64,000 nucleotides of DNA. Source: an uncultured Gemmatimonadales bacterium (lineage in GTDB: Bacteria; Gemmatimonadota; Gemmatimonadetes; Gemmatimonadales; Gemmatimonadaceae). The stretch's first letter is position 1, and each line of letters opens with the position of its first letter. Positions 6,202 to 35,180 of the stretch are shown here, piece after piece. The notes beneath the pieces are model-generated. The model saw nothing but the letters and a program-made list of their open reading frames with translations. It was not told where the DNA came from and ran no database searches. A program made the position numbers and the translations under genes. Location of the stretch: contig CAWBZV010000005.1 in the NCBI GenBank assembly GCA_963793305.1, positions 1,120,001 to 1,184,000 on the forward strand, in the 5' to 3' direction.

Positions 6202-6245
6202 TGAGGATTGAGCGGCCGCGGTTCGCCTGCCACATTCCGTCTGCC

Positions 6246-7851
6246 ATGAGAGTCATGCATCCACGCGGCGCCGTGGTCATCGCGCTGCTCGTCGCGGCCG
6301 GCGCGATGGCGGTTCCCGCGCAAGCGCAAGGGTCGGCCGATCTCCCGCTCGACGACAACGCGTACTACTACATTGACGCGTTGCTGGCTCGCGGGGCGTT
6401 GCGGTCGTTGTCGGCGCTCGACCGGCCGTACAAGGTGCACGACGTTTGGGCGTTGCTCGATCGCGACAGCATCGCGCGCTCGAGCCCGATGATGCGCAGC
6501 TTCACGCGCGCACTCCGGGTGTCGATGCGGAAGTACGACCCGCGCGCCGACCGGCCCACGCCCCGCGACAGCACGCGAACCGTGATGCGGTACCAGGTCG
6601 GAGGCGACGTGTACGCGACCGGTCAGACCTCCGGCATTCGCGAGCTCATGCTGGGGGACGGGCACGCGGCCCTCGATCCGGCGTTCGAACGTCCGCGCAG
6701 TGGCTGAAGGCGGACCGCTGACGATCGCCTTCCGCGGCGGCATCGATCGGCGACTGATGGATGACCCGGAGTACTGGCACCCGAACTCGTTCCTGCAGCA
6801 GGCCAACGACTTCCGACTCACGGACGGCTACATCGATGCCCGCTGGCGCTTTGGTGAGATCTTCATCGGTCGCGAAGCCCGGAACTGGGGACCCGAGGCG
6901 CTCGATGGCCTCCTCCTGGGCCACTACACGTATACCTACGATCAGTTCTACGCGTTGATCGGCGTGCGCGACCTCCACTATCAGATCATCGCGACGCGAT
7001 TGAACAACGAGTTCGTGCCGCCCGATACCGTCGCGCAGCGGTACTTCACGATTCACCGTCTGGCCGCGCGCATCGGGCCGGCCGAGTTCGCCGCCCAGGA
7101 AGCCGTCGTGTACGGCGGACCGGGTCGTGGATTCGAGCCGTCGTTCCTGAGTCCCGTGAATCTCTTCACGTTCTCCCAACTCAACGACGACCTGGACGCC
7201 ACCAAGAAGCTGTCGGCGCAAGCCGCGGTGCGCACGCGGTCGGCTGGAACGTACGCTGCCGAGGTGTACCTGAATGACATTCAGACGGGGGGCTGCAATC
7301 CGGCGGTGCTGTGCAAGAAACCGATCAGCGGTGGATGGACGCTGACGGCCGAGGGCATACCGTTCATCGGCGAGCAGCGGTTGTTCGCGTCGTACACCCT
7401 CGTCTCCTTCCTCGACTACCGGACCGATACGCCCTGGGAGCAGTATGACTACAACTACATCGGCCTCGGTCGCGGGTTCTCCGACTACGATGAGTGGCGG
7501 GCCGGCGTGGATCTCGCCGTGCTGCCGGGTGTCCCGCTCAAGGTGTACGGCGCCTATCGCCGGCAGGGCGAGGGCGACTACCGTATCCCGGTCCCGCCCC
7601 CCGATTCATTCCCCCTCATCCCGGCGTTCCTGTTCGGTACCGTGGAGCACGTGTATCGTGTGGGCGTGACCGGCGCCGCGTCGTTTCGCTGGCTCGACGT
7701 GTCGGGTGACGTCGGCGTCAACCACGTAACGAACTACAATCACGTCTCGGGAGTCTCGCACAACGACCTGGCGGCCCGGGTCCAGGTGATGCTCGTCTGG
7801 GCGCGCATCTTCGGCGGGGCCCTATCCACCGGACGGGACGATGCGCGGTAG
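6246..7851 (+). CDS. Capsule assembly Wzi-like outer-membrane protein, split by a +1 frameshift at 6687-6693 (about 534 aa if repaired)
   Basis: Signal peptide ending VPAQAQ; GREARNWGP motif; beta-strand-rich C-terminal half; removing one A from GAACGTC joins ORFs 6198..6707 and 6700..7851. Confidence 0.65.
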
Positions 7852-7860
7852 CGCCCGGCC

Positions 7861-9066
7861 ATGACCCGCGTGCTCATCGTCGGCGGTGGGATCGTCGGCC
7901 TCTCCGCTGCCTACCAGCTCACGGAGCAGCATCCCAACGTCGAACCGATCGTGCTCGAGAAGGAAGATGCCGTGGCGCGGCATCAGAGCGGTCGCAATAG
8001 CGGCGTGCTGCACGCCGGCCTCTACTACGCTCCGGGATCGGCGAAGGCGCGTCTGGCGGTCGCCGGCATCCGCGAGATGACGGCGTTCTGCGGCCGGCAC
8101 GACATACCGCACACGATCTGCGGGAAATTGGTCGTGGCCACATCGGCGGACGAGGTGCCGCGGCTCCGGGCGCTCCTCGAGCGCGGCACGCGCAACGGAT
8201 TGCGTGGTCTGCGCTGGCTGACGGCCGAAGAGGCACGCGCGATCGAGCCGGCGGTCGCCGCGGTGGCGGCCGTGCATGTGCCCGAAGAGGGAATCGTCGA
8301 CTACCCCCGCGTCGCTCGAGCGCTCGCCGACGCGGTGCGCTCGGGCGGTGGCCGGGTCGTCTGCGGCGCCCGTGTCGACTCTTTGCGCGCGACGACCGGC
8401 GGGTGGGTCGCCGAGACGTCCGCCGGGGCGTTCGAGGGCGACGTGCTCGTGAATTGCGCCGGGCTGCAGGCCGATCGGATCGCCGCGTTGAGCGGCGCGC
8501 GTTTGGACGTGCGCATTGTCCCTTTCCGTGGTGAGTACTACCTGCTGCGACCCGACCGCGAGCACCTCGTGCGATCGCTGATTTATCCCGTTCCCGACCC
8601 TGCATTCCCGTTTCTTGGCGTACATTTCACGCGCCGGATCAACGGCGGTGTCGAAGCCGGGCCGAATGCCGTGCTGGCACTCGCGCGCGAGGGCTACGAC
8701 CGGCCGCGGTTCGATCTGCGCGATGCGCTGTCGGCACTGGCGTTCCCGGGCCTCTGGCGGTTCGTCGCGCGCTATCCCCGCGTGTGCGCCGAAGAGCTCC
8801 GTCGCTCCTCGAGCCGCCGTCTGTTCGCCGCATCGCTGGCCCGGCTCGTCCCCGAGGTCGAGCCCGACGATCTGCTCCCGGGCGGCGTCGGCATCCGCGC
8901 CCAAGCCATGCGGCGGGATGGCACGCTCGTCGAGGATTTTCATTTTGTCGCCCAGCCGCGCGCGCTGCACGTCATCAACGCCCCAAGCCCGGGTGCGACC
9001 GCGTCGCTGGCCATTGGCCGGGAGATCGTCATGCATGTTCGTCCCGCGCTGACACGCGCCGCCTGA
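7861..9066 (+). CDS. lhgO: L-2-hydroxyglutarate oxidase family FAD oxidoreductase
   Basis: GGGIVG FAD motif, HQSGRNSGVLHAGLYY, PFRGEYY, YPVPDPAFPFLGVHFT, NAPSPGATA. Confidence 0.9.
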   Translation: MTRVLIVGGGIVGLSAAYQLTEQHPNVEPIVLEKEDAVARHQSGRNSGVLHAGLYYAPGSAKARLAVAGIREMTAFCGRHDIPHTICGKLVVATSADEVPRLRALLERGTRNGLRGLRWLTAEEARAIEPAVAAVAAVHVPEEGIVDYPRVARALADAVRSGGGRVVCGARVDSLRATTGGWVAETSAGAFEGDVLVNCAGLQADRIAALSGARLDVRIVPFRGEYYLLRPDREHLVRSLIYPVPDPAFPFLGVHFTRRINGGVEAGPNAVLALAREGYDRPRFDLRDALSALAFPGLWRFVARYPRVCAEELRRSSSRRLFAASLARLVPEVEPDDLLPGGVGIRAQAMRRDGTLVEDFHFVAQPRALHVINAPSPGATASLAIGREIVMHVRPALTRAA

Positions 9067-9633
9067 TGAAAATATCTGTCGAGCCGACCACGATCGCCGA
9101 CGTGGTGCTGATCAAACCCGAGGTCTTTCGTGATCCGCGCGGCTTCTTCACTGAAGTGTTCCGCGAGGAACGTCTTCGCCGCCGCCGGGTTGCCGACCCG
9201 GTTCGTCCAGCTGAATCACTCGCGCTCGGCCCGCAATGTCGTGCGGGGGCTCCATGTCCAGTGGGATCCCCCCATGGGCAAGCTGATGCGAGTCACCCAC
9301 GGTGCCGCCTTCCTGGTGGCCGTCGATCTCCGCAAGCGATCACCAACACTCGGACAGTGGGTGGCGGCCACGGTGTCGGCGGACGATATGACTCAGGTCT
9401 GGGCACCGGCAGGGTTCGCGCGGGGCTTCTGCGTCCTCAGCGATTTCGCCGAGATACAGTATTTGTGTACGGGCACGTACAATTCTGAGGGGGAAGGCGG
9501 GATCCGGTGGGATGACCCCGCGCTCGGTATCCCCTGGCCGACGGCGACACCAATCTTGTCGGCCAAGGATACGCGGGCACCGTCGCTCGAGGAGTGGCTC
9601 GCGACGCCACAGTCTAACCATTTTCAGTCATGA
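9066..9633 (+). CDS. rfbC: dTDP-4-dehydrorhamnose 3,5-epimerase, +1 frameshift at 9168-9174 (about 188 aa if repaired)
   Basis: FRDPRGFFTE in one frame; FVQLNHS, RGLH, VDLRKRSPTLG, GIRWDDP in the next; ATG overlaps the lhgO stop. Confidence 0.88.
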
Positions 9634-10631
9634 AGATTCTGGTCGCTGGCGGAGCAGGGTACATCGGCTCCGTGTTGGTGCCGAAACTGATCGCCCGCGG
9701 ATACGAGGTCGACGTCGTCGACCTGCTCTGGTTCGGCAACACGCTCCCGGGGGATATCCGGGTCATGCGGCGCGACGTGCTCGATCTGACCCGGGATGAG
9801 CTCGTGGGGTACGACCAGGTCGTGTTCCTGGCCGGCCTGTCGAACGATCCCATGGCGGAGTACTCGCCGGGAAAGAATTTCGTCTTCAACGCCGCCAGCC
9901 CAGCCTATCTGGCCTACATCGCCAAGCAGGCGCGCGTGCGGCGATTCGTGTACGCGAGCTCGTGCTCGGTGTACGGGTACACGGAGAACGAGCTGTTCGA
10001 CGAGCGCTCTCCCGCGATCTCGACGTATCCCTACGGGATCTCCAAGCTCCAGGGGGAGTTCGCGGCCCTCCAACTGCAAGACGAGACGTTCTCGGTCATC
10101 GCGCTGCGCAAAGGAACCGTCTGCGGATACAGCCCGCGCATGCGACTCGACCTCGTGATCAATACAATGTTCAAGACGGCGCTGACGACCAACGTCATCA
10201 CCGTGAACAATCCGGCGATCTGGCGGCCGATCCTGGCGATTCAAGACGCGGCCAGTGCGTATATCCGGGCCATCGAGTGCGGCGCCGAAATCTCCGGCAT
10301 CTTCAACGTCGCATCGGGGAACTACACGCTCGGCGAGCTCGCCGATTACGTGAGTGAGGCGCTCCGCGAGCTGGTCGGACTCGAGCCCCGGCTCGACATC
10401 AAGCACCTGACGGACGTGCGGAACTACAAAGTCTCGTGCGAGAAGGCGCAGACCACCCTGAGCTTCAAGCCCGCGCACAACGTCCGGAGCATCGTGAAGG
10501 ACCTGGTCGACCATCGGCACCTGTTCGCGGATTTCGACGACCCGCGTTTCTCCAATATCGCGACGTTCAAGCGGTTGGACGGGATTCCCAACGTCGCCCT
10601 CCCGCCGCGCTCGCCACGGGTGGCGGTCTGA
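9630..10631 (+). CDS. Extended SDR NAD-dependent epimerase/dehydratase
   Basis: GGAGYIG, ASSCSVYG, YGISK (YxxxK), GYSPRMRLDLVIN. Confidence 0.88.
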   Translation: MKILVAGGAGYIGSVLVPKLIARGYEVDVVDLLWFGNTLPGDIRVMRRDVLDLTRDELVGYDQVVFLAGLSNDPMAEYSPGKNFVFNAASPAYLAYIAKQARVRRFVYASSCSVYGYTENELFDERSPAISTYPYGISKLQGEFAALQLQDETFSVIALRKGTVCGYSPRMRLDLVINTMFKTALTTNVITVNNPAIWRPILAIQDAASAYIRAIECGAEISGIFNVASGNYTLGELADYVSEALRELVGLEPRLDIKHLTDVRNYKVSCEKAQTTLSFKPAHNVRSIVKDLVDHRHLFADFDDPRFSNIATFKRLDGIPNVALPPRSPRVAV

Positions 10632-10641
10632 TCGCGCGCGC

Positions 10642-11505
10642 ATGACTGTCGTCGTTGTTGGCGGCAACGGCCAACTCGGCGCCGATCTCATGACCGCATG
10701 CGCCGCGCGGAGGCTTCCGGCGATCGGGCTCACCCACGCCGATATCGAAGTGACGGACGCGACATCGGTCAATGCGGCGCTCGACCGGGCGGCGGCCGAC
10801 GTGATCGTGAACACGGCGGCGATGCACAATGTCGAGCGCTGTGAACAGGAGCCCGCCCAAGCGTTCGCCGTCAACGCCATCGGCGCGCGGCATCTCGCGC
10901 TCGCGGCGGCGCGACGCGGCGCGGCCCTCGTGCACGTCAGCACCGACTATGTGTTCGACGGTGCGCTGCGCCGCCCCTACGTCGAGGCCGACCTGCCGCG
11001 GCCGCTCAATGCGTACGGCGTGAGTAAGCTGGCCGGCGAGCACTTCGTGAGCGCACTCGCACCCCGCCATTTCATCGTTCGGTCATCGGGCCTCTACGGC
11101 GCGCATCCGAGTCGCGCGAAGGCCGGAGGACTCAACTTCGTGCGCCTCATGCTCAAGCTGGCGCGCGAGCGCGGGACGGTACGCGTCGTCGCCGACGAGT
11201 TCGTCACGCCGACGTACACGGTCGATCTCGCCGAACAGATCCTCGATCTGGCGGAGACGAGCGCCTACGGCACGTATCACGCGACGAGCGCCGGTGCCTG
11301 CTCGTGGAACGAGTTCGCCCGCGAGATCTTTCGCCGCGCCGCGCCGGACACCATCGTCGAGGATGCCGCGGCGTCGGACTTTCCGCGGCCGGTCGCGAGG
11401 CCGCTGTACTCCGTCCTCGACAACGCGGGCCTGCGCGCGTTGGGCATCGATCGCATGGCGGACTGGCGCGATGCGCTCGGCCGCTATCTCGCCGTGCTCG
11501 ATTGA
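10642..11505 (+). CDS. rfbD: dTDP-4-dehydrorhamnose reductase
   Basis: GGNGQLG, HVSTDYVFDG, PLNAYGVSKLAGE, RPLYSVLD. Confidence 0.92.
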   Translation: MTVVVVGGNGQLGADLMTACAARRLPAIGLTHADIEVTDATSVNAALDRAAADVIVNTAAMHNVERCEQEPAQAFAVNAIGARHLALAAARRGAALVHVSTDYVFDGALRRPYVEADLPRPLNAYGVSKLAGEHFVSALAPRHFIVRSSGLYGAHPSRAKAGGLNFVRLMLKLARERGTVRVVADEFVTPTYTVDLAEQILDLAETSAYGTYHATSAGACSWNEFAREIFRRAAPDTIVEDAAASDFPRPVARPLYSVLDNAGLRALGIDRMADWRDALGRYLAVLD

Positions 11506-12482
11506 TGCCGCTCGAGGCCGACTCGGATACCTGTCTGATCTGCGGCAATGCACACGACAATCAGCGGTGGACCGCGCGCGAGATGATGTTCGGCTTGCGC
11601 GACCGGTTCGAGTACCGGGAATGCGCGGCGTGCGGTTGCCTCACCCTCATATCACCTCCCGCCGACCTGTCGCGCTACTATCCCGCGGATTACTACGCGC
11701 ACGGGCGCCCGCGTCGCGAGTCCGGACTCAAGCGGTACCTGTGGCGCGTCCTGGCCGATCAGGTGCTGGGTCGACCCAGCGCGCTGGGCCGCGTGCTGGT
11801 GTGGCGTTTCGGGGCGCCGGAGTTCACGGAGTGGGTGCGCACGGCCGAGGTGTCGCGCGACGCCATGATTCTCGATGTCGGATGCGGCAATGGCTGGCTC
11901 CTCCGCCATATCCGAGCCGCGGGCTGGCACCGGCTGACCGGCGTCGACCCGTTCCTGGACCACGAGATCACCTGGCCCGATGGCGTGGTCCTCCGTCGGT
12001 GCGCGCTCGACGAGGTGACCGGCCACTTCGACTTCATCATGGCGCACCACTCCTTCGAGCACATGCCGGACCCGTGCGCCGCCGCGCGCCACATGGCCCG
12101 ACTCCTGGCTCCTGGCGGCCGCGTGCTGATCCGTGTTCCGGTCGCCGACTCCGAAGCGTGGCGTACGTATCGGTCGGATTGGGTGCAGCTCGACGCACCG
12201 CGCCATCACGTGATCCCCACGCGAGTCGGCATGGAGCACATCGCGCGACAGGCGGGTCTCCGCATCGAGCGGGTGACGTACGATTCGACCGGCTTCCAAT
12301 TCTGGGGCAGTGATCAGTACCGCCACGATGTTGCGCTGGCCGACGCGCGCCGGCGGAGCGGTGACGCCTGCCTCTGCTCGGCGAGCGCTCGCGCGCAATA
12401 TGACGCACGCGCTCGCGTCCTGAACGAGAGTGGCGGAGCTGACCAGGCCTGCTTCTACCTGCGCGCCGTCTCCCCGGTATAG
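11505..12482 (+). CDS. Class I SAM-dependent methyltransferase with N-terminal CxxC...CxxC zinc ribbon
   Basis: CLICG...CAACG, ILDVGCGNG, HSFEHMPDP, LDAPRH; ATG overlaps the rfbD stop. Confidence 0.87.
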   Translation: MPLEADSDTCLICGNAHDNQRWTAREMMFGLRDRFEYRECAACGCLTLISPPADLSRYYPADYYAHGRPRRESGLKRYLWRVLADQVLGRPSALGRVLVWRFGAPEFTEWVRTAEVSRDAMILDVGCGNGWLLRHIRAAGWHRLTGVDPFLDHEITWPDGVVLRRCALDEVTGHFDFIMAHHSFEHMPDPCAAARHMARLLAPGGRVLIRVPVADSEAWRTYRSDWVQLDAPRHHVIPTRVGMEHIARQAGLRIERVTYDSTGFQFWGSDQYRHDVALADARRRSGDACLCSASARAQYDARARVLNESGGADQACFYLRAVSPV

Positions 12483-12491
12483 GTTTTCTCC

Positions 12492-14000
12492 ATGCGCCGG
12501 ACCGGACTCCTCGCCCGCGACGTCCTCTGGAACCTTGCGGGCCAGGGCGCCCCAATCGCGGCCGCGTTCTTCGCCATACCCGCGCTGACGCGCGGCCTCG
12601 GCACCGACCGCTTCGGCATTCTCACGCTGGCCTGGGTTTTTCTCGGCTATTTCAGCCTGTTCGATCTGGGCCTCGGTCGGGCGTTGACCCAAGCGGTCTC
12701 AGAGCGCCTTGGTCGCGGTGAAACCGAGGACGTCGCGAGCATCGCCTGGACCTCACTCGCCGCGATGGGCTTGCTCGGACTCGTTGCGACGCTCGGCTCG
12801 GCGCTTGCTGCGCCGCTCATTGTCACCCACGCGCTCAAGGTCCCCCCCGAGCTGCGACGCGAGACGGAGCGGGCGTTCTATGTGCTGGCCGCTTCGATTC
12901 CAGTCGTCATTCTGACATCGGGCTTCCGCGGCCTCCTCGAAGCGCGGCACCGCTTCGACCTGAGCAATGCCATTCGCATGCCGCTCAGCCTCCTCATGCT
13001 CCTCTCACCGCTGGCCGTGCTGCCGTTCGATCACGATCTCTTCGTCATCGTCGGGCTGCTGCTGCTCGTCCGGATCGTGGGCCTGTTCGTGCACGCGTAC
13101 TTTGCCGCCCGAGTCGTGCCCGGTCTGTTCAAGCGCCCTGTCCTACGACTCGACGCGATGCGACCACTCCTGGCCACCGGTGGCTGGATGACGGTATCGA
13201 ACATCGTGAGCCCGCTGCTCGCGAGCTTGGACCGGTTCGTCATCGGCGGCGTGGCGTCCATGTCCGCGGTGGCCTACTACACGGCGCCGTACGAGGCCGT
13301 GACGAAGCTGTGGCTGGTGCCGGTCGCGATCAGTAACGCCCTCTTTCCGGAATTTGCCGCGACATTCTCGCGGGATCCGGTTCGGGGCGCCCGCCTGTAC
13401 CGGCGGAGCGTGACCACATTGCTGCTCGTGCTCTTTCCTATCACACTTGTCATCGTCGCCTTCGCGCGCGTGGGTCTCAAGCTCTGGCTCGGGCCCGTCT
13501 TCGCGCAACGGAGCACGGTGCTGTTGCAGGTGCTGGCGGCAGGGGTGTTGATCAATAGCCTCGCGTCAGTCCCGTTCACCCTCGCACAGGGCGTCGGTCG
13601 CCCGGACCTGACCGCCAAGTTGCACCTGGCGGAGCTCGCGCCTTTCGTCGGACTCCTCTGGATCCTGGTCGAGCGATTTGGCATTGTCGGCGCCGCAATC
13701 GCTTGGACGGCCCGCTGCACGGTCGACAGCGTCGTGCTGTTCATCGTCGGGCGGCGCATGTTGCCGAAGGGACACGCCTCGCTCGTGCCGATCGCCATGG
13801 CGTGCGCCGCCGCGGCCGGGTTGCTCGTGGTCGCGGCCCTCGCGGCAACGCCGTGGCTCCAGTTCGGCGTGGTGGTGATCGGCGTGCCCGTGTTTCTCGT
13901 CTGCGGCGTGACCTGGCTGCTCGATCGCGACGACATCGCGGCGATCCTGGCGCGCGTTCCCCTACGAGCGGCGCGCGCGCGGACTGAGCAGGCCGGCTAG
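12492..14000 (+). CDS. wzx: Polysaccharide flippase (Wzx/PST family)
   Basis: Many TM segments; LGTDRFG, FDLGLG, LDRFVIG, FGIVGAAIAW motifs. Confidence 0.88.
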   Translation: MRRTGLLARDVLWNLAGQGAPIAAAFFAIPALTRGLGTDRFGILTLAWVFLGYFSLFDLGLGRALTQAVSERLGRGETEDVASIAWTSLAAMGLLGLVATLGSALAAPLIVTHALKVPPELRRETERAFYVLAASIPVVILTSGFRGLLEARHRFDLSNAIRMPLSLLMLLSPLAVLPFDHDLFVIVGLLLLVRIVGLFVHAYFAARVVPGLFKRPVLRLDAMRPLLATGGWMTVSNIVSPLLASLDRFVIGGVASMSAVAYYTAPYEAVTKLWLVPVAISNALFPEFAATFSRDPVRGARLYRRSVTTLLLVLFPITLVIVAFARVGLKLWLGPVFAQRSTVLLQVLAAGVLINSLASVPFTLAQGVGRPDLTAKLHLAELAPFVGLLWILVERFGIVGAAIAWTARCTVDSVVLFIVGRRMLPKGHASLVPIAMACAAAAGLLVVAALAATPWLQFGVVVIGVPVFLVCGVTWLLDRDDIAAILARVPLRAARARTEQAG

Positions 14001-14927
14001 GGTGCCGGTGAGCACGGCCCAACCGATCCGGGGATGCCCGCGCACGGTTTCCAAGACCGCGCGGCCCGGTTTCGTGACGATGAGATAGAGGAGCGCCGCA
14101 AGCCGACGCAGCCCACGAAGGTTGCGTCGGACCCAGAAACCGCGATGCCGGTTGACGGCGTACGTGACGCGCGGCGATGCCTGGGCCTTGCCGAACGATG
14201 CGCCGACTCGATGATACGCGATGGCGCGCGGCACGTACCGCAGCGGGATCCCAGCGTCGCGAGCCCTCTGCGAATACTCGGTGTCCTCGAGGTATCCCGG
14301 ATAATAGATCTCCGGCAAGTGCCCCAGCCGCCGCAACGTCGGCGCGGAGATGAGCATCGTGCACCCACAGATGAATTCCGTCGGCAGCGCGCCGTCTCCG
14401 CCGGGCACGTCGAGGTTGTGGATGGACAGCGCGCGGACCGGCAGGATGCGACCGCCCGCGTACCAGACGCGATGGGGCGGCGCCATCTCGTAGATCGTTC
14501 CTGACGCGAGACCCGTGTCCGGGTAGGCGGCCAGTCCGGCCTCGAGATCGGCGAAATAGCTCGGACTCACCGTGGCGTCATTGTTCAACAACAGGAAATG
14601 CGTCGCGCCAACGTCGTGCTCCGCATACGCCAACGCGATATTGTTGCCGCCGGAGAAGCCCCGGTTTGTCGACGATGTGAAGAGCACCACTGCTCCAGAC
14701 CGCGGCACGCGGTCGGCGGGCCAGCCCGTCCGATCCTCACTCTCGATGCGCAGCGGTACGCCGCGCTCGCCCGCCCACGCGCGCAGTCGCTCGACCTCGC
14801 CGGGTCGGGAGCCGTTGTCGACCAGTGCAATGCCGTACGGCCGCGGCCGCGCGTCGAAGAGCGACTGGAGGCAGACCTCCGTATCGGCCGCGCCGTTCCA
14901 GTTGACGAGAATGACCCAGACGTTCAC
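13962..14927 (-). CDS. Glycosyltransferase family 2
   Basis: VILVNWNG, VDNGS, NRGFSGGNN, LLNND, YLEDTE; GTG at 14927 overlaps upstream stop. Confidence 0.9.
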   Translation of the reverse strand: MNVWVILVNWNGAADTEVCLQSLFDARPRPYGIALVDNGSRPGEVERLRAWAGERGVPLRIESEDRTGWPADRVPRSGAVVLFTSSTNRGFSGGNNIALAYAEHDVGATHFLLLNNDATVSPSYFADLEAGLAAYPDTGLASGTIYEMAPPHRVWYAGGRILPVRALSIHNLDVPGGDGALPTEFICGCTMLISAPTLRRLGHLPEIYYPGYLEDTEYSQRARDAGIPLRYVPRAIAYHRVGASFGKAQASPRVTYAVNRHRGFWVRRNLRGLRRLAALLYLIVTKPGRAVLETVRGHPRIGWAVLTGTLAGLLSPRARRS

Positions 14928-16432
14928 GCGCGGTTCACGCGGTCGGCACACTCTGTCCCGACGATCGTCATCGTCGCGCCGCTCAGCCAGAAGTAGAGGT
15001 ACGAGACGAATTGTCCGGTGAAGACCACCGAGGTGACGCTGTTGATGGCGATGCCGACGGTCGCCGCCAAGACCAGGACGCCGAAATGACGGGTGGGGGC
15101 CGTCGACCCGGAGCGAGCAATGGTCCGAGCGGCTGCGCCGACGCCGAAGAGAATCACCAGGAGCGGCAGCAGTCCCGGCAATCCGAGCTCGACGCCGTAC
15201 TTGAGGTACAGATTGTCTCCGGTCACATGTTCTGCGCCGAATCGGTCTCCGGTCGCGTCGGCGGTCGCCAAGCCAGTGCCGAGCGGGTTCGCGACGAACG
15301 CCGCGATGCCGTTCGACCAATCGACGAGGTGCTCCGTGCTGCTGCCGGTCTTGAACAACAACGTGTCGATCAACCACGCACCGAAGTCCGGTATGACGGC
15401 GATCGACATCACGAGCACCGCGGCGAATCCGGCGAGCACGCCGACGATGGCGCTCCGGCGATGGAGGTACCACGCGACGAGTCCCGTTTCGATCACGGCG
15501 CACACGATCGACATGCGCGTCACGGTCAGCAACAGGCCGGTCCAGGCGATAGCGTAGGCCACCCATCGGAGGAGCCCCACCCGGCGATCGCGGCGTAACA
15601 CCGCGATCGTGGCGGCCGGCATGATGAGGAGGAAGGCCGCCGCGAAGGCCTGGCTGGACAGGAACGTCGAGCCGGCGCGTGCGACCTGGCGGCCGCCGAT
15701 CTCCGTAAAGTAGTTCATTGGCAGTCCCAACTCGTCGGTCTGCAGCATGACCCCGAGGTTGAGAAAATCGCTAAAGTACTTCGACGCTCCGATGGCCACG
15801 AGGAACTCAGGTGGTACGAACAGTCGCTCGAGAATGGCCACGATGGAGAGGGCGACGCCGACCGCGAAGATCGTGTTCACGATGATTTCGCCGGCCATCT
15901 CTTTTCCACTGGACCGGCCGACGAAATAGAGCAGCAGAAAGAGACCGCTGTCGCGCACGCCGTACAACTGGCCGACGAGCGGGATCGGAGTGCCGACGAA
16001 CGGCTCTCGACCGATCAGGTTGCCCAGAACGACCGCGCCGAGGGCGGCGACGACGAGATCCATGGCGACGACGCGCGCGCCCCCACCCCGACCGGTCAAC
16101 AGTCGGACGATGAGCGCGATGAACACCACGAGCACGAGCGCTTCCTTCCACGCCGCGACGATCCGCGTGGTGGTCTCCGACAGGCCAACCACGGCGAAGA
16201 GCACGGCGACCACGACCACGTGCAGTGGGAGGAGGCAACACAGCGTGATGAACGCGCGCCGCGGGCGAGCCGCGAGCCAGGCGACCGCGCCCGATCCGAC
16301 GAGGACCAACGCGATCGGCGGTGCCAGCCATCCCAAGACCAGGAGCGCGGCCAGTCCGCCGACGCCCAGTCGCCACCACCGCCAGCGGCCCGGCTCGCCG
16401 TCTCCGGAGATCGCGACGGCGGCGGTCGTCAT
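14924..16432 (-). CDS. O-antigen ligase/Wzy polymerase-like membrane protein
   Basis: Multi-TM; RAGSTF, LLTVTR, NPLGTG, DNLYL...ELGLPG (Wzy_C-like) in wza-wzz context. Confidence 0.78.
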   Translation of the reverse strand: MTTAAVAISGDGEPGRWRWWRLGVGGLAALLVLGWLAPPIALVLVGSGAVAWLAARPRRAFITLCCLLPLHVVVVAVLFAVVGLSETTTRIVAAWKEALVLVVFIALIVRLLTGRGGGARVVAMDLVVAALGAVVLGNLIGREPFVGTPIPLVGQLYGVRDSGLFLLLYFVGRSSGKEMAGEIIVNTIFAVGVALSIVAILERLFVPPEFLVAIGASKYFSDFLNLGVMLQTDELGLPMNYFTEIGGRQVARAGSTFLSSQAFAAAFLLIMPAATIAVLRRDRRVGLLRWVAYAIAWTGLLLTVTRMSIVCAVIETGLVAWYLHRRSAIVGVLAGFAAVLVMSIAVIPDFGAWLIDTLLFKTGSSTEHLVDWSNGIAAFVANPLGTGLATADATGDRFGAEHVTGDNLYLKYGVELGLPGLLPLLVILFGVGAAARTIARSGSTAPTRHFGVLVLAATVGIAINSVTSVVFTGQFVSYLYFWLSGATMTIVGTECADRVNRA

Positions 16433-17535
16433 CGATCGTCGGCCACCGCGGCGCGCTGCCGGCGACGGGCGCCAGGAATGGCTCTGACCACGCCATCCAC
16501 TGCCATCCTCAAGCCAGCCGCCTCCTGGGGGTTCCGCTCGGCCCAGCCCGCGACGAGCACGAGCGAGCCGGCGACGAGCACGCCGAGGAACAGGCCAATG
16601 AAGGCCGCCGCAATGGTGATCGATGTGCGCTTGGGCCACTGTCGCATGACGGGGACGACCGCCGAGTCGACGACAGTGATCACCGGCGTGTCGTTCACCT
16701 CATCGAGTCGCGACGTTTCGAGCTCACGACGCAAAGTGAGGTAGAGCTCGCCCTCGATCTCGACCTGACGCCGGAGGCGTCCCTGCTCGAACGTCAGCTC
16801 CGCCGACTGCTGCCATTGCCGGTTGGTTTGCTGAAAATCACGAAGCCGGTCTTCGGCCGCGCGCAGCGTCGCCTGCGCGTTGGTCACCCGCGCATCGGCG
16901 AACACGCGGCGCGCCCGCGCGCGCGACTGGCGCTGCTCGACGTTGAACGAGTCGACGAGCGCCGTCACGTGATTGGCCAATGCCGCCGACAACGCGGGCC
17001 AGCGCGTATCGGCCCAGACCGTTATCAGATTGGTCTTGGTATCCGGGATCGCGCGAATCACGCCCTTCTCGAGCGTCGTGAGTGTCATCTCGAGTCGCTT
17101 CCGCGGATCCGGCACGTCGTCCGGCCCGAGGAGCTCCACGAGCGTCGCGGTGGCCTGGCCTCCGCGTTGGCGCGGATTCGCGTATTGCGCCGTCGCCAAC
17201 CTGGTGAGCAACTCGCGACTCATGATCAGTTGCTGGTAGAACTGCGGCGACGTGGTCGGGTCACCGGACACGCCGATCCCCAACGACTGGGCAAAGCCCG
17301 AGGCGCCCGCGATGCTGGCCAGCCCGGAGGACAGCCGCGATCCGGAATTCGGTATGGCGAGGAACGAGGCGCGCCCGCGGTAAATGGGGTGCGCAATGAA
17401 CGTGATGGCGATCGCGGCCGCCACGACGGCGAACGCGATCAATGCGACCATCCGCCACCGCGTGAGCACGCGTGCGAGCCATTCACCGAAGGTCATGCCG
17501 TTGCTCAGAACGGCGGGCGCGATCCCGTTTGTCAT
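16429..17535 (-). CDS. Polysaccharide chain-length determinant (Wzz/GumC-like, no kinase domain)
   Basis: N-terminal TM followed by PIYRGRA, central coiled coil, VVDSAVVP...PKR and a C-terminal TM. Confidence 0.8.
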   Translation of the reverse strand: MTNGIAPAVLSNGMTFGEWLARVLTRWRMVALIAFAVVAAAIAITFIAHPIYRGRASFLAIPNSGSRLSSGLASIAGASGFAQSLGIGVSGDPTTSPQFYQQLIMSRELLTRLATAQYANPRQRGGQATATLVELLGPDDVPDPRKRLEMTLTTLEKGVIRAIPDTKTNLITVWADTRWPALSAALANHVTALVDSFNVEQRQSRARARRVFADARVTNAQATLRAAEDRLRDFQQTNRQWQQSAELTFEQGRLRRQVEIEGELYLTLRRELETSRLDEVNDTPVITVVDSAVVPVMRQWPKRTSITIAAAFIGLFLGVLVAGSLVLVAGWAERNPQEAAGLRMAVDGVVRAIPGARRRQRAAVADDR

Positions 17536-20182
17536 CAGTGCCGTGTCAGGTAGATGACCGTCGCCAGGCTGGCGATCAACTGCACTGCGGTTCCGATGTA
17601 GGCCAGTGTCTGATCGGGCTGTTGGAGTCGCAGTTCCTTCTCCGGAACGTACACCCGCGAGCCCGGCTCGGGCACCGGGATGGTCGCCGGGAGAATCCCG
17701 TGGTGTCGAACGCTCTCGACCGTACCGTCGGGCTGCGTCACGTAGGCGCGACTGAGCTCCGCGCGGATGCCGGGGCCACCCGCGGCGTACACATAGTAAA
17801 TGAGGTTCTTGCCCGGGGCGTACGTGATCGCGATGGGCGCGTTCACCGATCCCGCGACGCGCACGACACCCGAGTAGCTCGGGATACTGATGGAATCGCC
17901 ATCCTGCAGAATGAGGTTGTCCTGGTGGTTCGGATTCTTGAGCGCGTCGCGAACGTCGACACCGATCCGGCCAACATGGTTCTGCGTCCGAATCAGCGCG
18001 ATGCCATTCGGATCGGCCTCTTTCGTCGGGCCACCCGCGCGCTCCAGTACTGCGTCGAGCCGCTCGGTCTTGGTGAGGAGCGTATATCGCCCGGGATACC
18101 GGACCTCGCCGGTCACCACGACCGTCCGGGGCAAGGTCCAATTGACTTGACGGAAGATGAGCACGTTGTCATACGGCTCGAGCACCGTGGACGGTCCCGA
18201 TGAGTCCAAGGGAACGCGCATGGTCACCGCCGTCACTCCACCCGCCCGATTCTCGGGAACGCGGGCAATCTCCGCCTGCGTGAGATCCGCGCCCTCCGTC
18301 GGGCCGCCGGCGAGGAGGACGAGGTCGCGCAAGGTCATGCCATCGTGATACGCCAAGCGCCCACCGTGGCGCACCGCGCCGGCGATGGCGACGTAGCGCC
18401 GCGGTCGCATCTCGTGCAACGCGAAGATCCGGATGTCGTCGTGGTCCTGCAGGATCACGTCCTCAATGGGCTCTCCGGTTGAGTCCCGGAGCGCTGCGCG
18501 GAGCTGTTGGCGGGTCGAATCCGGCCGCAGGCGCGCGATCAGCACGCTGCCGAGATACGCATCGGGTTTGAGGCCGCCGGCGAGTTTGAGCGCATCGGAG
18601 AGACGCATACCCGGCGAGAACCCCTGTGCACCCGGCGTCCAGACATCGCCGGAGACCGTCACGCGGTCGCGGACGCTCAGGTCGACCTTGAACACGTGCA
18701 CGCTGTCGTCCGGCTCCATCGCGATGGCCGGGCCAAGGCTGGCGTCCAGATCGGGAGGGGAGAACGTCCATCACGACCCGAGCGCGGTTGCCCCCGCCGG
18801 CCGTCGTATCGGGAACGACGCGCGTAATCTGCACGCGGTGGCGGACCGCGCTGGCCTCGAACCCACCGGCGTCGCGGAGCGCGTCGCGCAGTGTCTCCCC
18901 AGGCGCGAGCTCGTAGATGGCTTGACGCACCACCTCGCCCGTGACCTTGATGCGCGGGCCGTGCACCGGCACGAACACGATGTCACCGCTCTGGAGCTGG
19001 ACATCATGTGATGCGTCGCCGTGCAGGAGATACGCGTAGACGTTCGAGCGAGTCCGCCAACCGGCCGCCGCGCCGGATCTCGATGCGGCGCAGCGAGCCG
19101 TTCGGGTCCGGCCCGCCCGCGACGTAGAGGGCAGTGAGGGCCGTGCCGGCGCTCGAGATCTCGTAGCTGCCCGGTTGCGCGACGTCGCCGACCACGAAGA
19201 CCTGATTCGTGTGGAGGCGGGTGACGCTGATCGAGAAATGCGTGGTTGCCGATGGTCCCCGGCGCACGCCGGAGTAGAACCGCGGGAGCCGCTCGTACAA
19301 CACGTCTTCCAACTGCGCCAGGGTAAGATTCGCCACGGCGATCTCACCGACCGAGGGGATCACGACGAACCCCTCGCGCGTGACGAGCAGCGATCGGGCG
19401 GCTTCGACCTGCCCGGTCAGGATCAGCATCAACTGGTCGCCGGGTTCGATCCGGTAGTTCGCCCCGACGGGACCCGCGAGATTCGCTCTGAATTGCGAGC
19501 TGCCCCGTCGAAAGAGATTCAAGCCGAACACCCGAAGGGCGGAGTCGGGTGGCGCGAGCATACGGAGGAGCCGCTGCTTGGCGGCATAGGGGATCGATGT
19601 ATCGGCCACCAGCGACCGAATGCGGGCGCGGATGGCCCGCATCGAATCGGCGGCGAACGCCGTATCCGCCGTCGAGTCGAACGCATACGCATCAGGGGGA
19701 GGTCGGAGGCGTCGCAACGCGCGGCCGAGCAGCAGCGAATCCGCGTAGGCGGCCGCACCCGTGTCGACCGTATCGGCCAGGCGCCCTCGCGCGCGGCGGG
19801 AGAGGAGAGAGTCGAGTCGGGCGGTACCCACCAGTGAGTCGACGGTCGCCGAGTCCACCAGTCCGAGTTGGCTGACGGCGTTGATCACCTCGGCGCTCGG
19901 CGGCATTGTGTCGGCGGACGTGCCGCCACCGCCAGCCATGTAGGCGTCCAGCAGACTGTCAGGATACCCCGCTGCCTCCAGTCGTGACCGGATCTGCTCC
20001 GGAGTCAGCCCGCTCTCCTCGAGGCGTTGTCGCAGCTGCGCGGCGAGGTCAGGTCGGGTCTGGAGGAGCTGCTGTGCCTGTGAGGAAGATGGGACCTGCG
20101 GCACCTGGGCCGCCGCGACCTGCGCGGCGACGAGCAGTGCCACCGCCAGGCCGACTGCGGTAATTAGCGACCGAGGTCGCAC
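17535..20182 (-). CDS. SLBB-repeat polysaccharide export protein (Wza/KpsD-like), two +1 frameshifts at 19039-19045 and 18762-18768 (about 881 aa if repaired)
   Basis: Signal peptide ending VAAAQ; YRIEPGDQL Poly_export motif; repeated V.V.G.V..PG and L..AGG SLBB units spread over three consecutive frames. Confidence 0.85.
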
Positions 20183-20349
20183 GGAAGCGTTCGCATCTTG
20201 GGGAGCAGGATGGAGAAACGTCTGCGGCGAGCGCGTCGCCTGGAACAGAGCGGTAGTGTAATTCGCGAGACACCAGGCGGGTACCCCCGAGCCCGCTCCG
20301 ACGTTCCGGTCTTGCGCGTGTATGAACGACCAGCCCAACATTGCACGAA

Positions 20350-21555: not shown

Positions 21556-21667
21556 TCGACGCGGTCTATAGTCTTTCGGGCCACGCTATTGACCGCGCCA
21601 GGACGGTTGTCCACGTTATGTCGTTGCCCGTTGCGCGTACCTTCCTCGCCCGGAGCGGCTGCCCCGC

Positions 21668-23041
21668 ATGGCCCTTCTCTCCTTTCTCGATCGTGAGCAC
21701 TCGATCGCCGAATCGGACTACAGTCGCTGGCTCGTCCCGCCTGCCGCTTTGGCCATTCACCTGTGCATCGGACAGGTCTATGCGCTCAGCGTCTTTAAGA
21801 TCCCCCTGTCCCAACTGATCGGCGGCAGTCCGAAAGCGCCCGGGAACTGGTCCCAGGAGACGATCTCCCACCTGTTCCAGATCGCGATCGTGTTTCTCGG
21901 GCTGTCGGCGGCAACGTTCGGGGCTTGGCTGGAGCGGGTCGGCCCACGCCGGGCCATGTTCACCTCCGCCTGCTGCTTCGGGGGCGGCTTTGTCGTCGGC
22001 GCCATCGGCATCTACCTGCACCAGTTCTGGCTTCTCGAGCTGGGCTACGGGGTGCTCGGCGGCATCGGGCTCGGCATCGGCTACATCTCGCCGGTGTCTA
22101 CGCTGATCAAGTGGTTCCCGGACCGCGCGGGAATGGCGACCGGCATGGCGATCATGGGCTTTGGCGGCGGCGCGATGATCGCATCCCCGCTGTCGGTCGG
22201 CTTGATGAATTTCTATAAGTCCGGGCTCTCACAGGGCGTCACGAAGACGTTCCTGACGATGGGCGTCCTGTACTTCCTGTTCATGATGTTCGGCGTCTTC
22301 AGCGTTCGTCTTCCAAAGCCGGGATGGCGTCCGGCCGGCTTCGTCGAGCCGACGACCGGTCGGATGATCACGCGGGCGAATGTCTCGGTGAATGAGGCCA
22401 TGCGGACGCCGCAGTTCTACCTCCTGTGGGTCATGCTGTGCGTGAACGTCACGGCGGGCATTGGCGTCATCGAGCAGGCGTCGCCGATGATCCAGGAGAT
22501 GTTCCCCGGCGTGATCAAGGCATCGGCGGCCGCCGGGTTCGTCGGACTGCTCAGCATCGCGAACATGAGCGGCCGGTTTCTGTGGTCTTCGTTCTCCGAC
22601 ATCATTGGCCGGCGCGCCACCTACGCGACGTTCTTCGCGCTCGGCGCGGTGCTCTACTGGTGTATTCCGGCCGCGGGCCATAGCGGACGGGTCTGGTTGT
22701 TCGTGCTGATCTGCGTCGTTGTTCTCACGATGTACGGCGGCGGGTTCGCGACGATCCCCGCCTATCTGCGCGACATGTTCGGCACGATGCAGGTCGGCGC
22801 GATCCACGGCCGGTTGCTCACGGCGTGGTCACTGGCGGGCGTCCTGGGCCCGCTGATCGTGAACCGCATGCGCGAGTCGCAGATCGCCGCGGGTGTCGCA
22901 AAGGCCGATGCCTATACGCTCAGCATGCACATCATGACCGCGCTGTTGGTCGTTGGCTTTCTCTCGAATCTCTTTGTGCGCCCGGTCGATGAGCGGCACC
23001 ACTATCGGACAGCGACCGAGCCGGCGGGGGTGCCGACATGA
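21668..23041 (+). CDS. OFA-family (oxalate/formate/lactate-type) MFS transporter
   Basis: HLCIGQVYA, GYISPVSTLIKWFPDRAGMATG, YGGGFATIPAYL, IHGRLLTAWS. Confidence 0.9.
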   Translation: MALLSFLDREHSIAESDYSRWLVPPAALAIHLCIGQVYALSVFKIPLSQLIGGSPKAPGNWSQETISHLFQIAIVFLGLSAATFGAWLERVGPRRAMFTSACCFGGGFVVGAIGIYLHQFWLLELGYGVLGGIGLGIGYISPVSTLIKWFPDRAGMATGMAIMGFGGGAMIASPLSVGLMNFYKSGLSQGVTKTFLTMGVLYFLFMMFGVFSVRLPKPGWRPAGFVEPTTGRMITRANVSVNEAMRTPQFYLLWVMLCVNVTAGIGVIEQASPMIQEMFPGVIKASAAAGFVGLLSIANMSGRFLWSSFSDIIGRRATYATFFALGAVLYWCIPAAGHSGRVWLFVLICVVVLTMYGGGFATIPAYLRDMFGTMQVGAIHGRLLTAWSLAGVLGPLIVNRMRESQIAAGVAKADAYTLSMHIMTALLVVGFLSNLFVRPVDERHHYRTATEPAGVPT

Positions 23042-23136
23042 AAGGACGGCTGATCATTGCCTGGAGCTTCGTCGGCATCCCGTTGATTTGGGGTGTCGCC
23101 CAGGTCGTCACGCGATCGCTGGCGCTGTTCCGGTAA
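23038..23136 (+). CDS. 32-aa single-TM MFS-associated small protein MKGRLIIAWSFVGIPLIWGVAQVVTRSLALFR
   Basis: ATG overlaps the MFS stop (ATGA); AWxxVGIPLxWGV pattern typical of OFA-MFS tail or small subunits; too short for the ORF track. Confidence 0.8.
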   Translation: MKGRLIIAWSFVGIPLIWGVAQVVTRSLALFR

Positions 23137-23142
23137 GTCCAA

Positions 23143-23216
<74 letters not shown>

Positions 23217-23249
23217 TTCACGGCAGGTTACCGGGCGCTCGACGGCCGG

Positions 23250-24243
23250 TCAAGCGTCAGGGTAGTCGTCGAACGCCGCCACCACCTCGGCGGCCGAGAC
23301 GGTGGCGGCGCCGAGCTTGCCGACTTCGACACCGGCGGCGTAATTCGCGACGATCGCCGCTTCCAACGCGCTCGCTCCACCAGCCAACATGGCTGCCAAA
23401 TAGGCGGTCACGGTATCGCCGGCCCCGACGACGTCATACACCGCGCGCGCGGTCGTCGGGACGTGGTGCGTTGAGCCATCGGGTTCGATCAGCGCCATGC
23501 CCTTTTCTCCAAGGGTCAGCAGGAGATGCTCGACGCCGAGTCGTTTCAGGGTCGCATGCAGCTCGGCCGGCTCATCGAGATCGACCGCCGCTCCGAGCGC
23601 ATTTTCCAACTCTCGTCTATTGGGCTTGAAGATCGTCGCGCCGCCGTACTGGAAAAAATGTCGATACTTGGGATCGACGACGACCGGAATACGTCGTTCG
23701 CTGGCTCCCTCGATGGCTCGCCGGATCACGCGGGGTACGAGCACCCCCTTGTTGTAGTCCTCGAGCACGACAGCGTCCGCGTCGGCGACCGCCCGGCTCA
23801 CGACATCGAGGAGCCCGTCGATCTCCGCGCCGGAGATGTCGGCATCTTCTTCTTCGTCGAACCGCACGACCTGCTGCGCCCGCGCGAGGACGCGAGTCTT
23901 CGTGGTCGTGGGACGACCCACCATGCACAGCGCGCGCGGATCGGTGGGCAACCCGCGGAGCAGGTCGCGCACGACGCCGCCGGCAATGTCATCGCCGACG
24001 ACCGCCACGAGCTCGCAACGCGCGCCCAACGCCACGACATTCTGCGCGACGTTCGCGGCGCCACCCAGCGCTTGCGCGCGCTGGCGCACGCGTACGACCG
24101 GCACGGGCGCCTCGGGGGAGATGCGATCGAACGTCGCCACGGAGATACACATCGAGCATCGCGTCGCCGACGACCGCGACGCGCATCCCCCGCGCCGCAT
24201 CGAGCAGCTCGACGAGCCGCGCCCGCGAAATGGACGGTTGCAT
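23250..24243 (-). CDS. rfaE1: D-glycero-beta-D-manno-heptose-7-phosphate kinase (HldA/RfaE1), +1 frameshift at 24129-24135 (about 330 aa if repaired)
   Basis: VVGDAMLDVY then RISPEAPVPVV, LGGAANVA, DYNKG, KPNRRE, VYDVVGAGDTV. Confidence 0.9.
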
Positions 24244-24304
24244 GAGGGAGCTAAGATAAACCGAAGGGTGGACTCTCGGCACGGGGCTTGCCCAATAGAC
24301 GGGG

Positions 24305-26888: not shown

Positions 26889-26968
26889 CAGTAGGCCCGC
26901 TCGGATGTTTGCCGAGACCCCACGTCGGTGCATTTCGTCACCGAGGCTGGCTCATTGGTACGAACCCG

Positions 26969-26977
26969 TGATACATT
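26969..26977 (+). promoter_or_regulatory. Putative extended -10 promoter (TGaTACATT) for the arylsulfotransferase gene
   Basis: TGnTAnnnT about 75 nt upstream of the start, in an intergenic region. Confidence 0.35.
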
Positions 26978-27051
26978 CGCTCCGACAGAATCGAGGCGTG
27001 TCGTGGTCCCGCGCGCCTCCGCCGAAACGGCCCGTTTCTCTTGCGAGGGTG

Positions 27052-28479: not shown

Positions 28480-28539
28480 GGTCGCCCGTATCGAACGATG
28501 ACGCGCCCGCCGGGGCGATGACGCGCTAGTTTCCGATCC

Positions 28540-30329: not shown

Positions 30330-30330
30330 C

Positions 30331-31482: not shown

Positions 31483-31492
31483 TTTTGAACTT

Positions 31493-32539: not shown

Positions 32540-32547
32540 GGACTGCT

Positions 32548-33678: not shown

Positions 33679-34478
33679 CCTGGTTTTCGGTGCGCGTTTG
33701 GCCCGATGAGGCCACGCGCGACGCCGTGACCCAGGTGCTGTTCGATCACGGTTGCGCGGCGCTCCAAGACGATGGCCCATCGATCGTCACCTGCTTCCCC
33801 GAAGAACAGATCGCGGCGCTCCGTGCGGCGATCGCTCCGGAGGTCCGCGTTGAGATCGCGGCGATCGCAGACGTTGACTGGTCGGAGCGCTGGAAGGACC
33901 AGCTCCACGCGCACCGTATCGGTTCGCTGACGATCGCCCCGCCATGGCTGGCCACCCCGGGCGCAATTGTCATTGAGCCGGCGATGGCGTTCGGTACCGG
34001 CGACCACCCCACCACGCGCGGCATGCTGCACCTGATGCAGAGGGTAATTCGCCGCGGCGATTTGGTCGCCGACCTCGGCGCCGGCAGCGCGGTCTTGTCG
34101 ATCGCCGCTGCGATGCTCGGGGCGTCGCGAGTCGCGGCGATCGAGATCGACGCCGAGGCGATAAGCAACGCCGAGCTCAACGTGCGCCACAATGGTGCCG
34201 ACGACCGCGTGCAAGTGCTTCAGGGCGACGCCGCGCTACTGCTCCCACTCCTCGCGCCAGTTCGTGTTGTCCTCGCAAATATTATTTCTTCAGTCCTCGT
34301 GGAACTCTTGCCCACGATGGACGCGAGTCTCACCGCCAATGGCGCGATGATCGTCAGCGGCGTGTTGCGCGCGGAGCGCGCACACATGCTGTCCGTATTC
34401 GAGTCCGCTGGCTGGCTGCTGGCCGATGAGACCACCGAGGCCGACTGGTGGAGCGCGAGTTTCGAGCGAGCCACATGA
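33675..34478 (+). CDS. prmA: Ribosomal protein L11 methyltransferase
   Basis: IEPAMAFGTGDHPTT, DLGAGSAVL, LANI; follows dnaJ. Confidence 0.92.
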   Translation: MTWFSVRVWPDEATRDAVTQVLFDHGCAALQDDGPSIVTCFPEEQIAALRAAIAPEVRVEIAAIADVDWSERWKDQLHAHRIGSLTIAPPWLATPGAIVIEPAMAFGTGDHPTTRGMLHLMQRVIRRGDLVADLGAGSAVLSIAAAMLGASRVAAIEIDAEAISNAELNVRHNGADDRVQVLQGDAALLLPLLAPVRVVLANIISSVLVELLPTMDASLTANGAMIVSGVLRAERAHMLSVFESAGWLLADETTEADWWSASFERAT

Positions 34479-35180
34479 TCGGGCTATTCACCCAGGGCCC
34501 GTTCACCGTCGGCGAAACGGTCACCGTCGAAGACGCGGCAACCCACCACCTGCGCGTGCGACGCGCCACGATGGGCAACGCGATCGCCCTCTACGACGGC
34601 GCGGGCACAACCGCCGAAGGCCAGCTGACACTGTTGACGACCCACCGGGCGGTGGTCTCGATTACCTCCGTCCGCCATATCGACGCGCCACCGGCGGTCC
34701 ACCTGCTCGTACCGATCGCCGACCGCGATCGAATGCTCTGGCTCGCCGAGAAGGCCACCGAGCTGGGACTCACGTCCTGGCGCGCCGTGAACTGGCGCCG
34801 CTCGCGCAGCGTGTCGCCACGCGGCGAGGGCCCGTCGTTCGCCGCCAAAGTGCGTGCCCGGATGTGCGCCGCCATCGAACAGTCCGGCAATCCCTGGCTG
34901 CCGACGGTCGAGCCAGAACGTCGACCCGGCGGTCGCGGCAACCGAATCCTCAGGCGCCCGTTACGTGCTGGCCGCCGGTGCCCCACTGATGGCGAGCCCA
35001 CTCACGGCACCGCTCACGCTCGCCCTCGGCCCCGAGGGTGGAATCGAGGACGACGAGGCGGCACTCTTCGAGCGCTCCGGCTTCATCCCGGTATCCGTCG
35101 GAGCACACACGTTACGGTTCGAGACCGCCGGCGTCGTCGCCCTCGGCCTCGCCCGCGCCCTGCTGGAGCACACGCGATGA
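34475..35180 (+). CDS. rsmE: 16S rRNA m3U1498 methyltransferase, +1 frameshift at 34916-34922 (about 234 aa if repaired)
   Basis: HHLRVRR, EKATELG, AIEQSG in the first frame; LGPEGG and LRFETAG in the second. Confidence 0.9.

Follow-up and report, generated by a model that had tools for sequence, protein, structure and literature searches.

Insertions and G-to-A substitutions at GACGTC and GATG in the assembly of an uncultured Gemmatimonadales bacterium, with two candidate methyltransferases

Methylation-linked errors in nanopore sequences have been described before. According to Liu et al. (10.64898/2026.01.14.699587), the G-to-A call (G2A) is the dominant methylation-linked error in R10 data, being both motif-bound and strand-biased, and according to Chiou et al. 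(PMC10687267), modification-mediated errors vanish after amplification. Two enzymes acting on the palindrome GACGTC are known: M.AatII makes G(m6A)CGTC, with m6A being N6-methyladenine (PMC3287169), and M.Lsp6406III, which has a cognate endonuclease gene, places m6A as gAcgTc (PMC4752239). The present analysis concerns a window of 64,000 nucleotides (G000:C5:1120001-1184000) from the genome of an uncultured Gemmatimonadales bacterium (G000), in which GACGTC is repeatedly written as GAACGTC or GACGTTC within genes. This genome amounts to 5.72 Mb in 26 contigs with a GC content of 65% and is 92% complete. Its contigs of up to 1.6 Mb, together with the error pattern, suggest a long-read assembly, presumably made from nanopore data. 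One of its proteins has close named homologs in records of Gemmatimonadaceae.

The errors resemble those of Liu et al. and PMC10687267 in being motif-bound, probably strand-biased G>A errors that enter the consensus; Liu et al. also describe, from reverse-strand reads, eight C>T calls at CATCTC, which on the opposite strand reads as a word with GATG in it. The 6-bp palindrome is that of M.AatII (PMC3287169) and M.Lsp6406III (PMC4752239), with the wrong call falling on the G beside the adenine which they methylate. Like an AatII/ZraI-type system, the genome encodes an amino-methyltransferase with a DPPY-type motif, while a cognate endonuclease was found neither beside this beta-class methyltransferase nor as its family partner in the 92%-complete genome. 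Unlike the published nanopore cases, one fifth of the GACGTC lesions here are gene-breaking +1 insertions, about one third of the sites are wrong, and the motif was read from the assembly without signal data. One marine survey (10.64898/2026.06.24.734251) found no methylated motifs in Gemmatimonadota, and within an incomplete coverage of the literature neither this lesion nor methylation of GACGTC was seen described for the phylum.

Broken genes and silent errors in the window

The first-pass annotation of the window had read six frameshifts as one and the same lesion. The six sites are present as described, with GAACGTC at 6687, 9168, 18762, 24129 and 34916 and GACGTTC at 19039, and removing one base restores in each gene a single frame matching a congener protein across the break. 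Two further one-base breaks lie at 20215 and at about 61626 in folD. The lesions are listed in window coordinates, with the state of the site in contigs of public runs (X1, X2, X3 and X5) and in congeners (G001 and G003).

6687..6693, + strand: GAACGTC for true GACGTC, extra A in the Wzi-like gene; base absent in X1 and X3, frame joins
9168..9174, + strand: GAACGTC for true GACGTC, extra A in rfbC; base absent in X1; G001 and G003 have GACGTC
18762..18768, + strand: GAACGTC for true GACGTC, extra A in the SLBB export gene, which lies on the - strand; base absent in X1, X2 and X5
19039..19045, - strand: GACGTTC for true GACGTC, extra T in the SLBB export gene; base absent in X1, X2, X3 and X5; G001 has GACGTC
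20215..20222, + strand: compound lesion where GACGTC is true, with one base too many and an A in place of G; X1 and X2 omit 20215 and have G at 20217; absent from the first-pass list
24129..24135, + strand: GAACGTC for true GACGTC, extra A in rfaE1/PfkB (gene on the - strand); base absent in the main X1 contig; G001 and G003 have GACGTC
34916..34922, + strand: GAACGTC for true GACGTC, extra base in rsmE; outside the run comparison; G001 is one base shorter, with GACGTC; joined frame matches 249 of 249 congener residues at 92% identity
61623..61628, + strand: AGAATG for probable true AGATG, splitting folD (word GAGAATG, second motif); model-called +1 frameshift, Pfam halves in two frames, joined frame matches G003; outside the run comparison
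5824..14615, no strand assigned: six silent substitutions at true GACGTC, as GACGTT at 5824 and 6441 and as AACGTC at 7936, 10479, 10590 and 14610; X1 has C or G at each, and five of the six are also seen in at least one other covering run
9234..23988, + strand: ten silent CAATG for true CGATG, at 9235, 10166, 10771, 15119, 17441, 18465, 20872, 20958, 23141 and 23985; X1 has G at all ten

The run comparison covers window positions 5600-25550. Ten public runs matched, three of them with at least half of the sampled words; four runs from three studies were compared, as assembled contigs only. X1 may be the source sample of the assembly, and X3 and X5 come from other studies. X1 omits the extra base at all five first-pass sites in this stretch (6688, 9169, 18763, 19043 and 24130) and also at 20215; the same omissions are found in X2 (18763, 19043 and 20215), X3 (6688 and 19043) and X5 (18763 and 19043). 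When joined, the frames align to the congener over 522 (Wzi-like), 364 (rfbC frame), 887 (SLBB) and 369 (RfaE1/PfkB) residues, and Pfam agrees with the gene names (Wzi, weakly; dTDP_sugar_isom; Poly_export/SLBB; PfkB; Methyltrans_RNA). This confirms, as the first-pass annotation had supposed for the organism in vivo, that all six broken genes are whole in the bacterium itself and that the extra bases are an assembly artefact, leaving the polysaccharide export cluster of the window intact. Its statement that no lesion sits in a homopolymer run holds only in part: since the extra base duplicates the A (or T), a 2-base run is created.

X1 is about 99.9% identical to the window over the compared stretch, and its 30 substitutions include 17 A>G and 2 T>C. 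Five of the A>G and both T>C changes restore GACGTC and ten A>G changes restore CGATG, so that 17 of these 19 fall in one of the two motifs and two A>G lie elsewhere. Measured against X1, 12 of the 20 true GACGTC sites in the stretch are miswritten, while 67 CGATG and 76 CATCG stay correct. The 7-mer alone is not diagnostic: the window contains 19 GAACGTC and 17 GACGTTC, only six of these 36 being lesions, and 13 other copies in the compared stretch do not differ from the public-run contigs.

Some smaller observations were made in the same alignments. The two A>G changes of X1 outside both motifs, at 16362 and 18901, restore GGCGCC and CCCGGG; other runs disagree with X1 at 16362 and partly at 18901. 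At 23152-23214 and 22099-22132, many contigs of foreign origin align with loose ends, as for a tRNA-like or repeated element. At 48090-48118, close to a gene end, the window has 29 bases more than G001.

Genome-wide pattern and strand polarity

As proposed in the first-pass annotation, frameshift breakpoints were counted over the whole genome, and a strong enrichment of the GACGTC-derived 7-mers was found. A coding model self-trained on G000 called 556 frameshifts, consisting of 450 insertions and 106 deletions. GAACGTC or GACGTTC occurs within 15 nt of 149 of the 450 insertions (5.1 expected) versus 2 of the 106 deletions, with 1.0% of coding positions lying this close to such a 7-mer. The model called three of the six first-pass sites as frameshifts; several true breaks near a stop were missed, and its counts are therefore lower bounds. 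AACGTC/GACGTT is the most over-represented 6-mer of the genome (observed/expected ratio (O/E) 1.40, z +25) and GACGTC the second most depleted one (O/E 0.72). The density of GACGTC is about 460 per Mb versus 610-810 in five congeners (with rounded sizes), and the normalised AACGTC/GACGTC ratio is 1.80 versus 0.81-1.04 in the same congeners. CTCGAG, AGCGCT and AACGTT were also considered and were not retained as lesions, since they are equally depleted in the congeners and show no error class.

A comparison with G001 (596 kb aligned at 91% identity, from 770 kb taken) shows that insertions are the smaller part of the lesion. The alignment includes 257 GACGTC sites whose flanks match; of these, 130 stay the same in G000, 53 are written as AACGTC or GACGTT, 12 carry an insertion (together 195 sites that are intact or miswritten) and 62 are otherwise different. 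In the reverse direction, with G001 changed, there are five substitutions and no insertion. Near-cognate 6-mers are roughly symmetric (GACGTG 5:6, GACGCC 10:8, GACGAC 11:9), with a slight lean in GAAGTC (12:4) and GACCTC (8:3). The target is exactly GACGTC, and the flanking bases are unconstrained. In an unbiased scan of substitution contexts against G001, the GACGTC and GATG classes came out on top. The earlier reading was right about the insertions and incomplete in two respects: it overlooked the G>A substitution, which is four times as common, and it overlooked the second motif.

This second motif, GATG, carries the same lesion, written as CAATG or AGAATG, and in both motifs the G stands immediately 5' of an A. 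Of 279 remaining insertions in the genome, 97 coincide with GAATG/CATTC (11 expected). In the alignment to G001, CGATG has become CAATG at 135 sites versus 39 in reverse, and AGATG has become AGAATG at 12 of 646 sites.

The errors are furthermore one-ended and locally polarised. None of the 257 GACGTC sites is altered at both ends, where simple arithmetic gives about five if the ends were independent. Errors less than 3 kb apart share the same orientation in 127 of 189 substitution pairs versus 38 of 81 control pairs (the pairs not being independent), as they do in 50 of 78 pairs that join the two motifs and in 21 of 29 pairs of insertions; past 6 kb the shared orientation is around 50% and the effect is mostly gone. 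One-ended lesions and the like orientation of neighbours point to strand-specific read errors. A genome-wide plus-strand asymmetry was considered as well and rejected: AACGTC and GACGTT are balanced, and CAATG exceeds CATTG on the plus strand in 11 of 11 large contigs, although only slightly, so that the local strand skew is better explained by short-range polarity. Taken together, these data show assembly errors which are specific to GACGTC and GATG, one-ended and locally polarised.

A mechanism can be proposed as follows. The organism would methylate adenine in GACGTC, on both strands, and in GATG, and the assembly would be a consensus of long reads that was not corrected with short ones. 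On the strand carrying G-m6A, reads would often call that G as A, with opposite-strand reads being correct. At low, strand-skewed coverage, the consensus would take the wrong A, giving AACGTC, or GACGTT from the other end; alternatively, it would retain both letters, G and A, giving GAACGTC or GACGTTC and a +1 frameshift. As the mark would be on both strands and the reads of each strand would err at their own G, a strand-majority consensus would be wrong at one end only.

Candidate methyltransferases, their carriers and a nuclease partner

The first-pass annotation had suggested looking for methyltransferase genes in the remaining genome, and candidates were found there, all outside the window. 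Four of the five methyltransferase Pfam searches, together with an overlapping N6_Mtase search, revealed five methyltransferase-type genes, of which two are orphans with a DPPY motif:

C2:48212-49066: orphan beta-class methyltransferase, DPPY (Pfam search)
C4:116395-117483: orphan D12 methyltransferase (MethyltransfD12), DPPY (Pfam search)

The beta-class enzyme is the favoured candidate for GACGTC, with a reasonable probability of being correct. It matches one PADLOC Type II methyltransferase model strongly (PDLC03215, E 2.6e-96) and is flanked, as judged by eye, by a gene resembling a glycoside hydrolase and by a small regulator. This best PADLOC model has 331 positions, which we take to be the size of M.AatII implied by the plasmid sizes in PMC3287169 if Dam has 278 aa; this is a weak hint. 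A search of metagenome contigs with the M.AatII gene start gave no match. For GATG, the D12 enzyme is put forward with even weight for and against. It corresponds to the N-terminal half of a PADLOC model for Type II methyltransferases with 646 positions and stands alone beside a sigma-factor-like gene. Among D12-class adenine methyltransferases, NlaIII and FokI recognise CATG and GGATG. The second candidate likewise belongs to MethyltransfD12 and the error motif is GATG; unlike enzymes of that kind, it is a stand-alone orphan of putative specificity.

Two further regions of the genome are of interest as side observations. A defence island at G000:C3:726195-738417 and 740304-748547 (L011 and L008) encodes BREX PglX and PglZ (PADLOC-confirmed) with several apparent frameshifts, followed by a C5 methyltransferase with Vsr, also matching DruM models, and by uncharacterised genes. 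At G000:C4:73526-78733 (L012), a 1043-aa type IIG/Eco57I-like methyltransferase is followed by a split SNF2-like helicase.

Among 30 relatives, the beta-class enzyme occurs in five, including the congeners G001, G004 and G005 and excluding G002 and G003, and the D12 enzyme occurs in 11, including all five congeners; one of the 11 is the unpublished G012. G003 is a single contig with many insertion errors and no beta-class enzyme. The 7-mer lies at only one of its 56 insertions (0.4 expected), with an O/E of 1.04 for GACGTC and 1.05 for AACGTC, while a modest GATG lesion is present (5 of 56 insertions, 1.5 expected; CAATG O/E 1.21). The combination of a missing GACGTC lesion and a modest GATG one fits the D12 enzyme acting on GATG and the beta-class enzyme on GACGTC. 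Other long-contig non-carriers (G007, G016, G020, G028 and G029) have AACGTC/GACGTC ratios of 0.81-1.09, based on pattern counts only. Long-contig and short-read classes were assigned from contig size and record titles, not from platform records. Two unrelated long-contig carriers show the lesion: G034, with a homolog of 58% identity, has 6 of 11 insertions on the 7-mer (0.1 expected) and G042 has 3 of 37 (0.2 expected).

Near 80 homolog loci, GACGTC did not stand out among the avoided palindromes (rank 28 and 24 of 64); GACGTC is depleted in many carriers, and since there is no non-carrier control outside the order, this was not used as evidence. G058, the genome of locus L114, has very few GACGTC sites (153 in about 4.3 Mb) and likewise very few of CTGCAG (198); this may reflect a general palindrome avoidance. 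Insertion errors in G003 (loci L051-L070) are enriched near GCAGC/GCTGC (16 of 56, 5.3 expected), words also reported for such insertion errors in PMC10687267. Those of G042 (loci L194-L203) lean to CTGCA and GTCGA words, which suggests that other motifs are methylated there as well.

The beta-class family is widespread, with at least 8000 homologs (all 8000 scored candidates passed). A convergent gene of about 220 aa follows the methyltransferase at 43 of 80 GTDB loci by direct tblastn and at 63 of 80 by clustering. Its product has an HPD...EIK motif and a structure model (pLDDT 87.5) matching NaeI (Z 9.6, root-mean-square deviation 3.6, 147 aligned) and other Type II endonucleases; judging from this fold match, it is probably the cognate nuclease. 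Sequence searches gave it no Pfam or PDB name. Across L112-L190, 3' of the methyltransferase match (e.g. L115:3882-4565, - strand), these convergent genes form an unannotated family of 3183 hits without Pfam model, probable Type II restriction endonucleases of NaeI/EcoRV-like fold. The partner was not found in G000, G001, G004, G005 and G026, in a search run without positive control.

Weighing the explanations

Methylation-driven consensus errors in long reads are very likely the best explanation as a whole. That methylation is the cause can be stated with high confidence, and m6A is the likely mark. The first-pass view that the organism modifies the motif, with a methyltransferase as simplest cause, thereby stands as the best reading, the mark being deduced from motif-bound errors and candidate genes. 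A number of points weigh against it. The evidence consists of assembled contigs alone, so both mark and platform are inferred, not observed. The genome encodes three more methyltransferases, namely the C5 enzyme with Vsr, BREX PglX and the type IIG-like protein, and the likeness to M.AatII concerns target, presumed mark and enzyme class. At 24130, contigs of X2 (depth 2.6) and X3 (depth 3.6) and a second X1 contig overlap without deletion; these may be partial matches from other organisms. Five of the seven long-contig carriers give no clear signal (G035 1/1, G050 1/18, G026 1/12, G033 0/14, G040 0/7), and the frameshift test took in one non-carrier long-contig genome, G003. Long-contig carriers (median 1.72, n=25) and short-read carriers (1.33, n=22) are not set apart by their AACGTC/GACGTC ratio (p=0.18). 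Since a high ratio was part of the reason for choosing the six outside carriers among the seven, and no platform is recorded, the carrier pattern is suggestive only.

The same artefact could arise from another mark, namely N4-methylcytosine (m4C) or 5-methylcytosine (m5C) in CATC and at the final C of GACGTC, read as T on that strand. A C>T change is seen as G>A from the opposite strand, and the two look alike in contigs; for m4C, which beta-class methyltransferases can make, weak PDB hits include an N4 methyltransferase, and for m5C a C5 methyltransferase is present. However, both orphan candidates carry DPPY, which is typical of m6A enzymes. The known GACGTC enzymes also make m6A (PMC3287169, PMC4752239), and G2A in read orientation dominates R10 data (10.64898/2026.01.14.699587), which leaves a cytosine mark unlikely. 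A context-specific weakness of basecaller or polisher, with no link to DNA modification, would agree with the A2G/G2A bias that remains in amplified DNA in the same preprint (10.64898/2026.01.14.699587); it is very improbable given that the full 6-bp palindrome is needed for an error and that the error-rich long-contig congener G003 lacks the lesion. Phosphorothioate (GpsA) or 7-deazaguanine at the motif, which the first-pass annotation had offered as alternatives, would explain a wrong call on the G of the GA step in both motifs, and the missing 8% of the genome could hold the genes. Neither gained support, and we hold both for just as improbable: DndB and PAPS_reduct (dndC/sspD) had no match in G000, with controls matching in 1 and 14/14 genomes (no individual search was made for DndD, DndE, SspB/C or the other Dpd genes). 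A single tRNA-guanine transglycosylase was matched and no second one (PF01702; a distant DpdA could escape), hence no separate dpdA was found.

Real mutations at a hotspot of the sequenced strain are largely refuted and hardly credible. The public runs may represent a sister strain and not the cells behind the assembly, and the low-depth contigs at 24130 lack the deletion. Against this, X1 differs from the window almost only at the two motifs, the intact form is shared by runs of three studies and by two congeners, and the errors are one-ended and locally polarised; hundreds of frameshifts, including in folD and rsmE, would moreover be implausible in a viable cell.

The artefact class itself is already published; the present analysis contributes the substitution class, the second motif and the two candidate enzyme assignments. 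For users of the assembly, the result is a quality warning: about one third of its GACGTC sites are wrong, which extrapolates to about 1,000 substitutions and 250 frameshifts at GACGTC in the whole assembly, and errors also affect a few percent of the CGATG/AGATG sites. Where these words occur, pseudogenes and changes from Asp to Asn or from Val to Ile should not be taken for biology. As a joint reading, which we offer tentatively and with more doubt than confidence, the error pattern alone may read out the methylome of the lineage and assign specificities: an unannotated Type II restriction-modification family, consisting of the beta-class methyltransferase and the convergent nuclease of NaeI/EcoRV fold, would recognise GACGTC and be represented here by an orphan methyltransferase, and the conserved orphan D12 enzyme would hemimethylate the asymmetric GATG as a candidate regulatory mark. 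In this way, the errors lead to testable guesses about the specificity of two methyltransferases, so far uncharacterised, from a lineage without cultured members.

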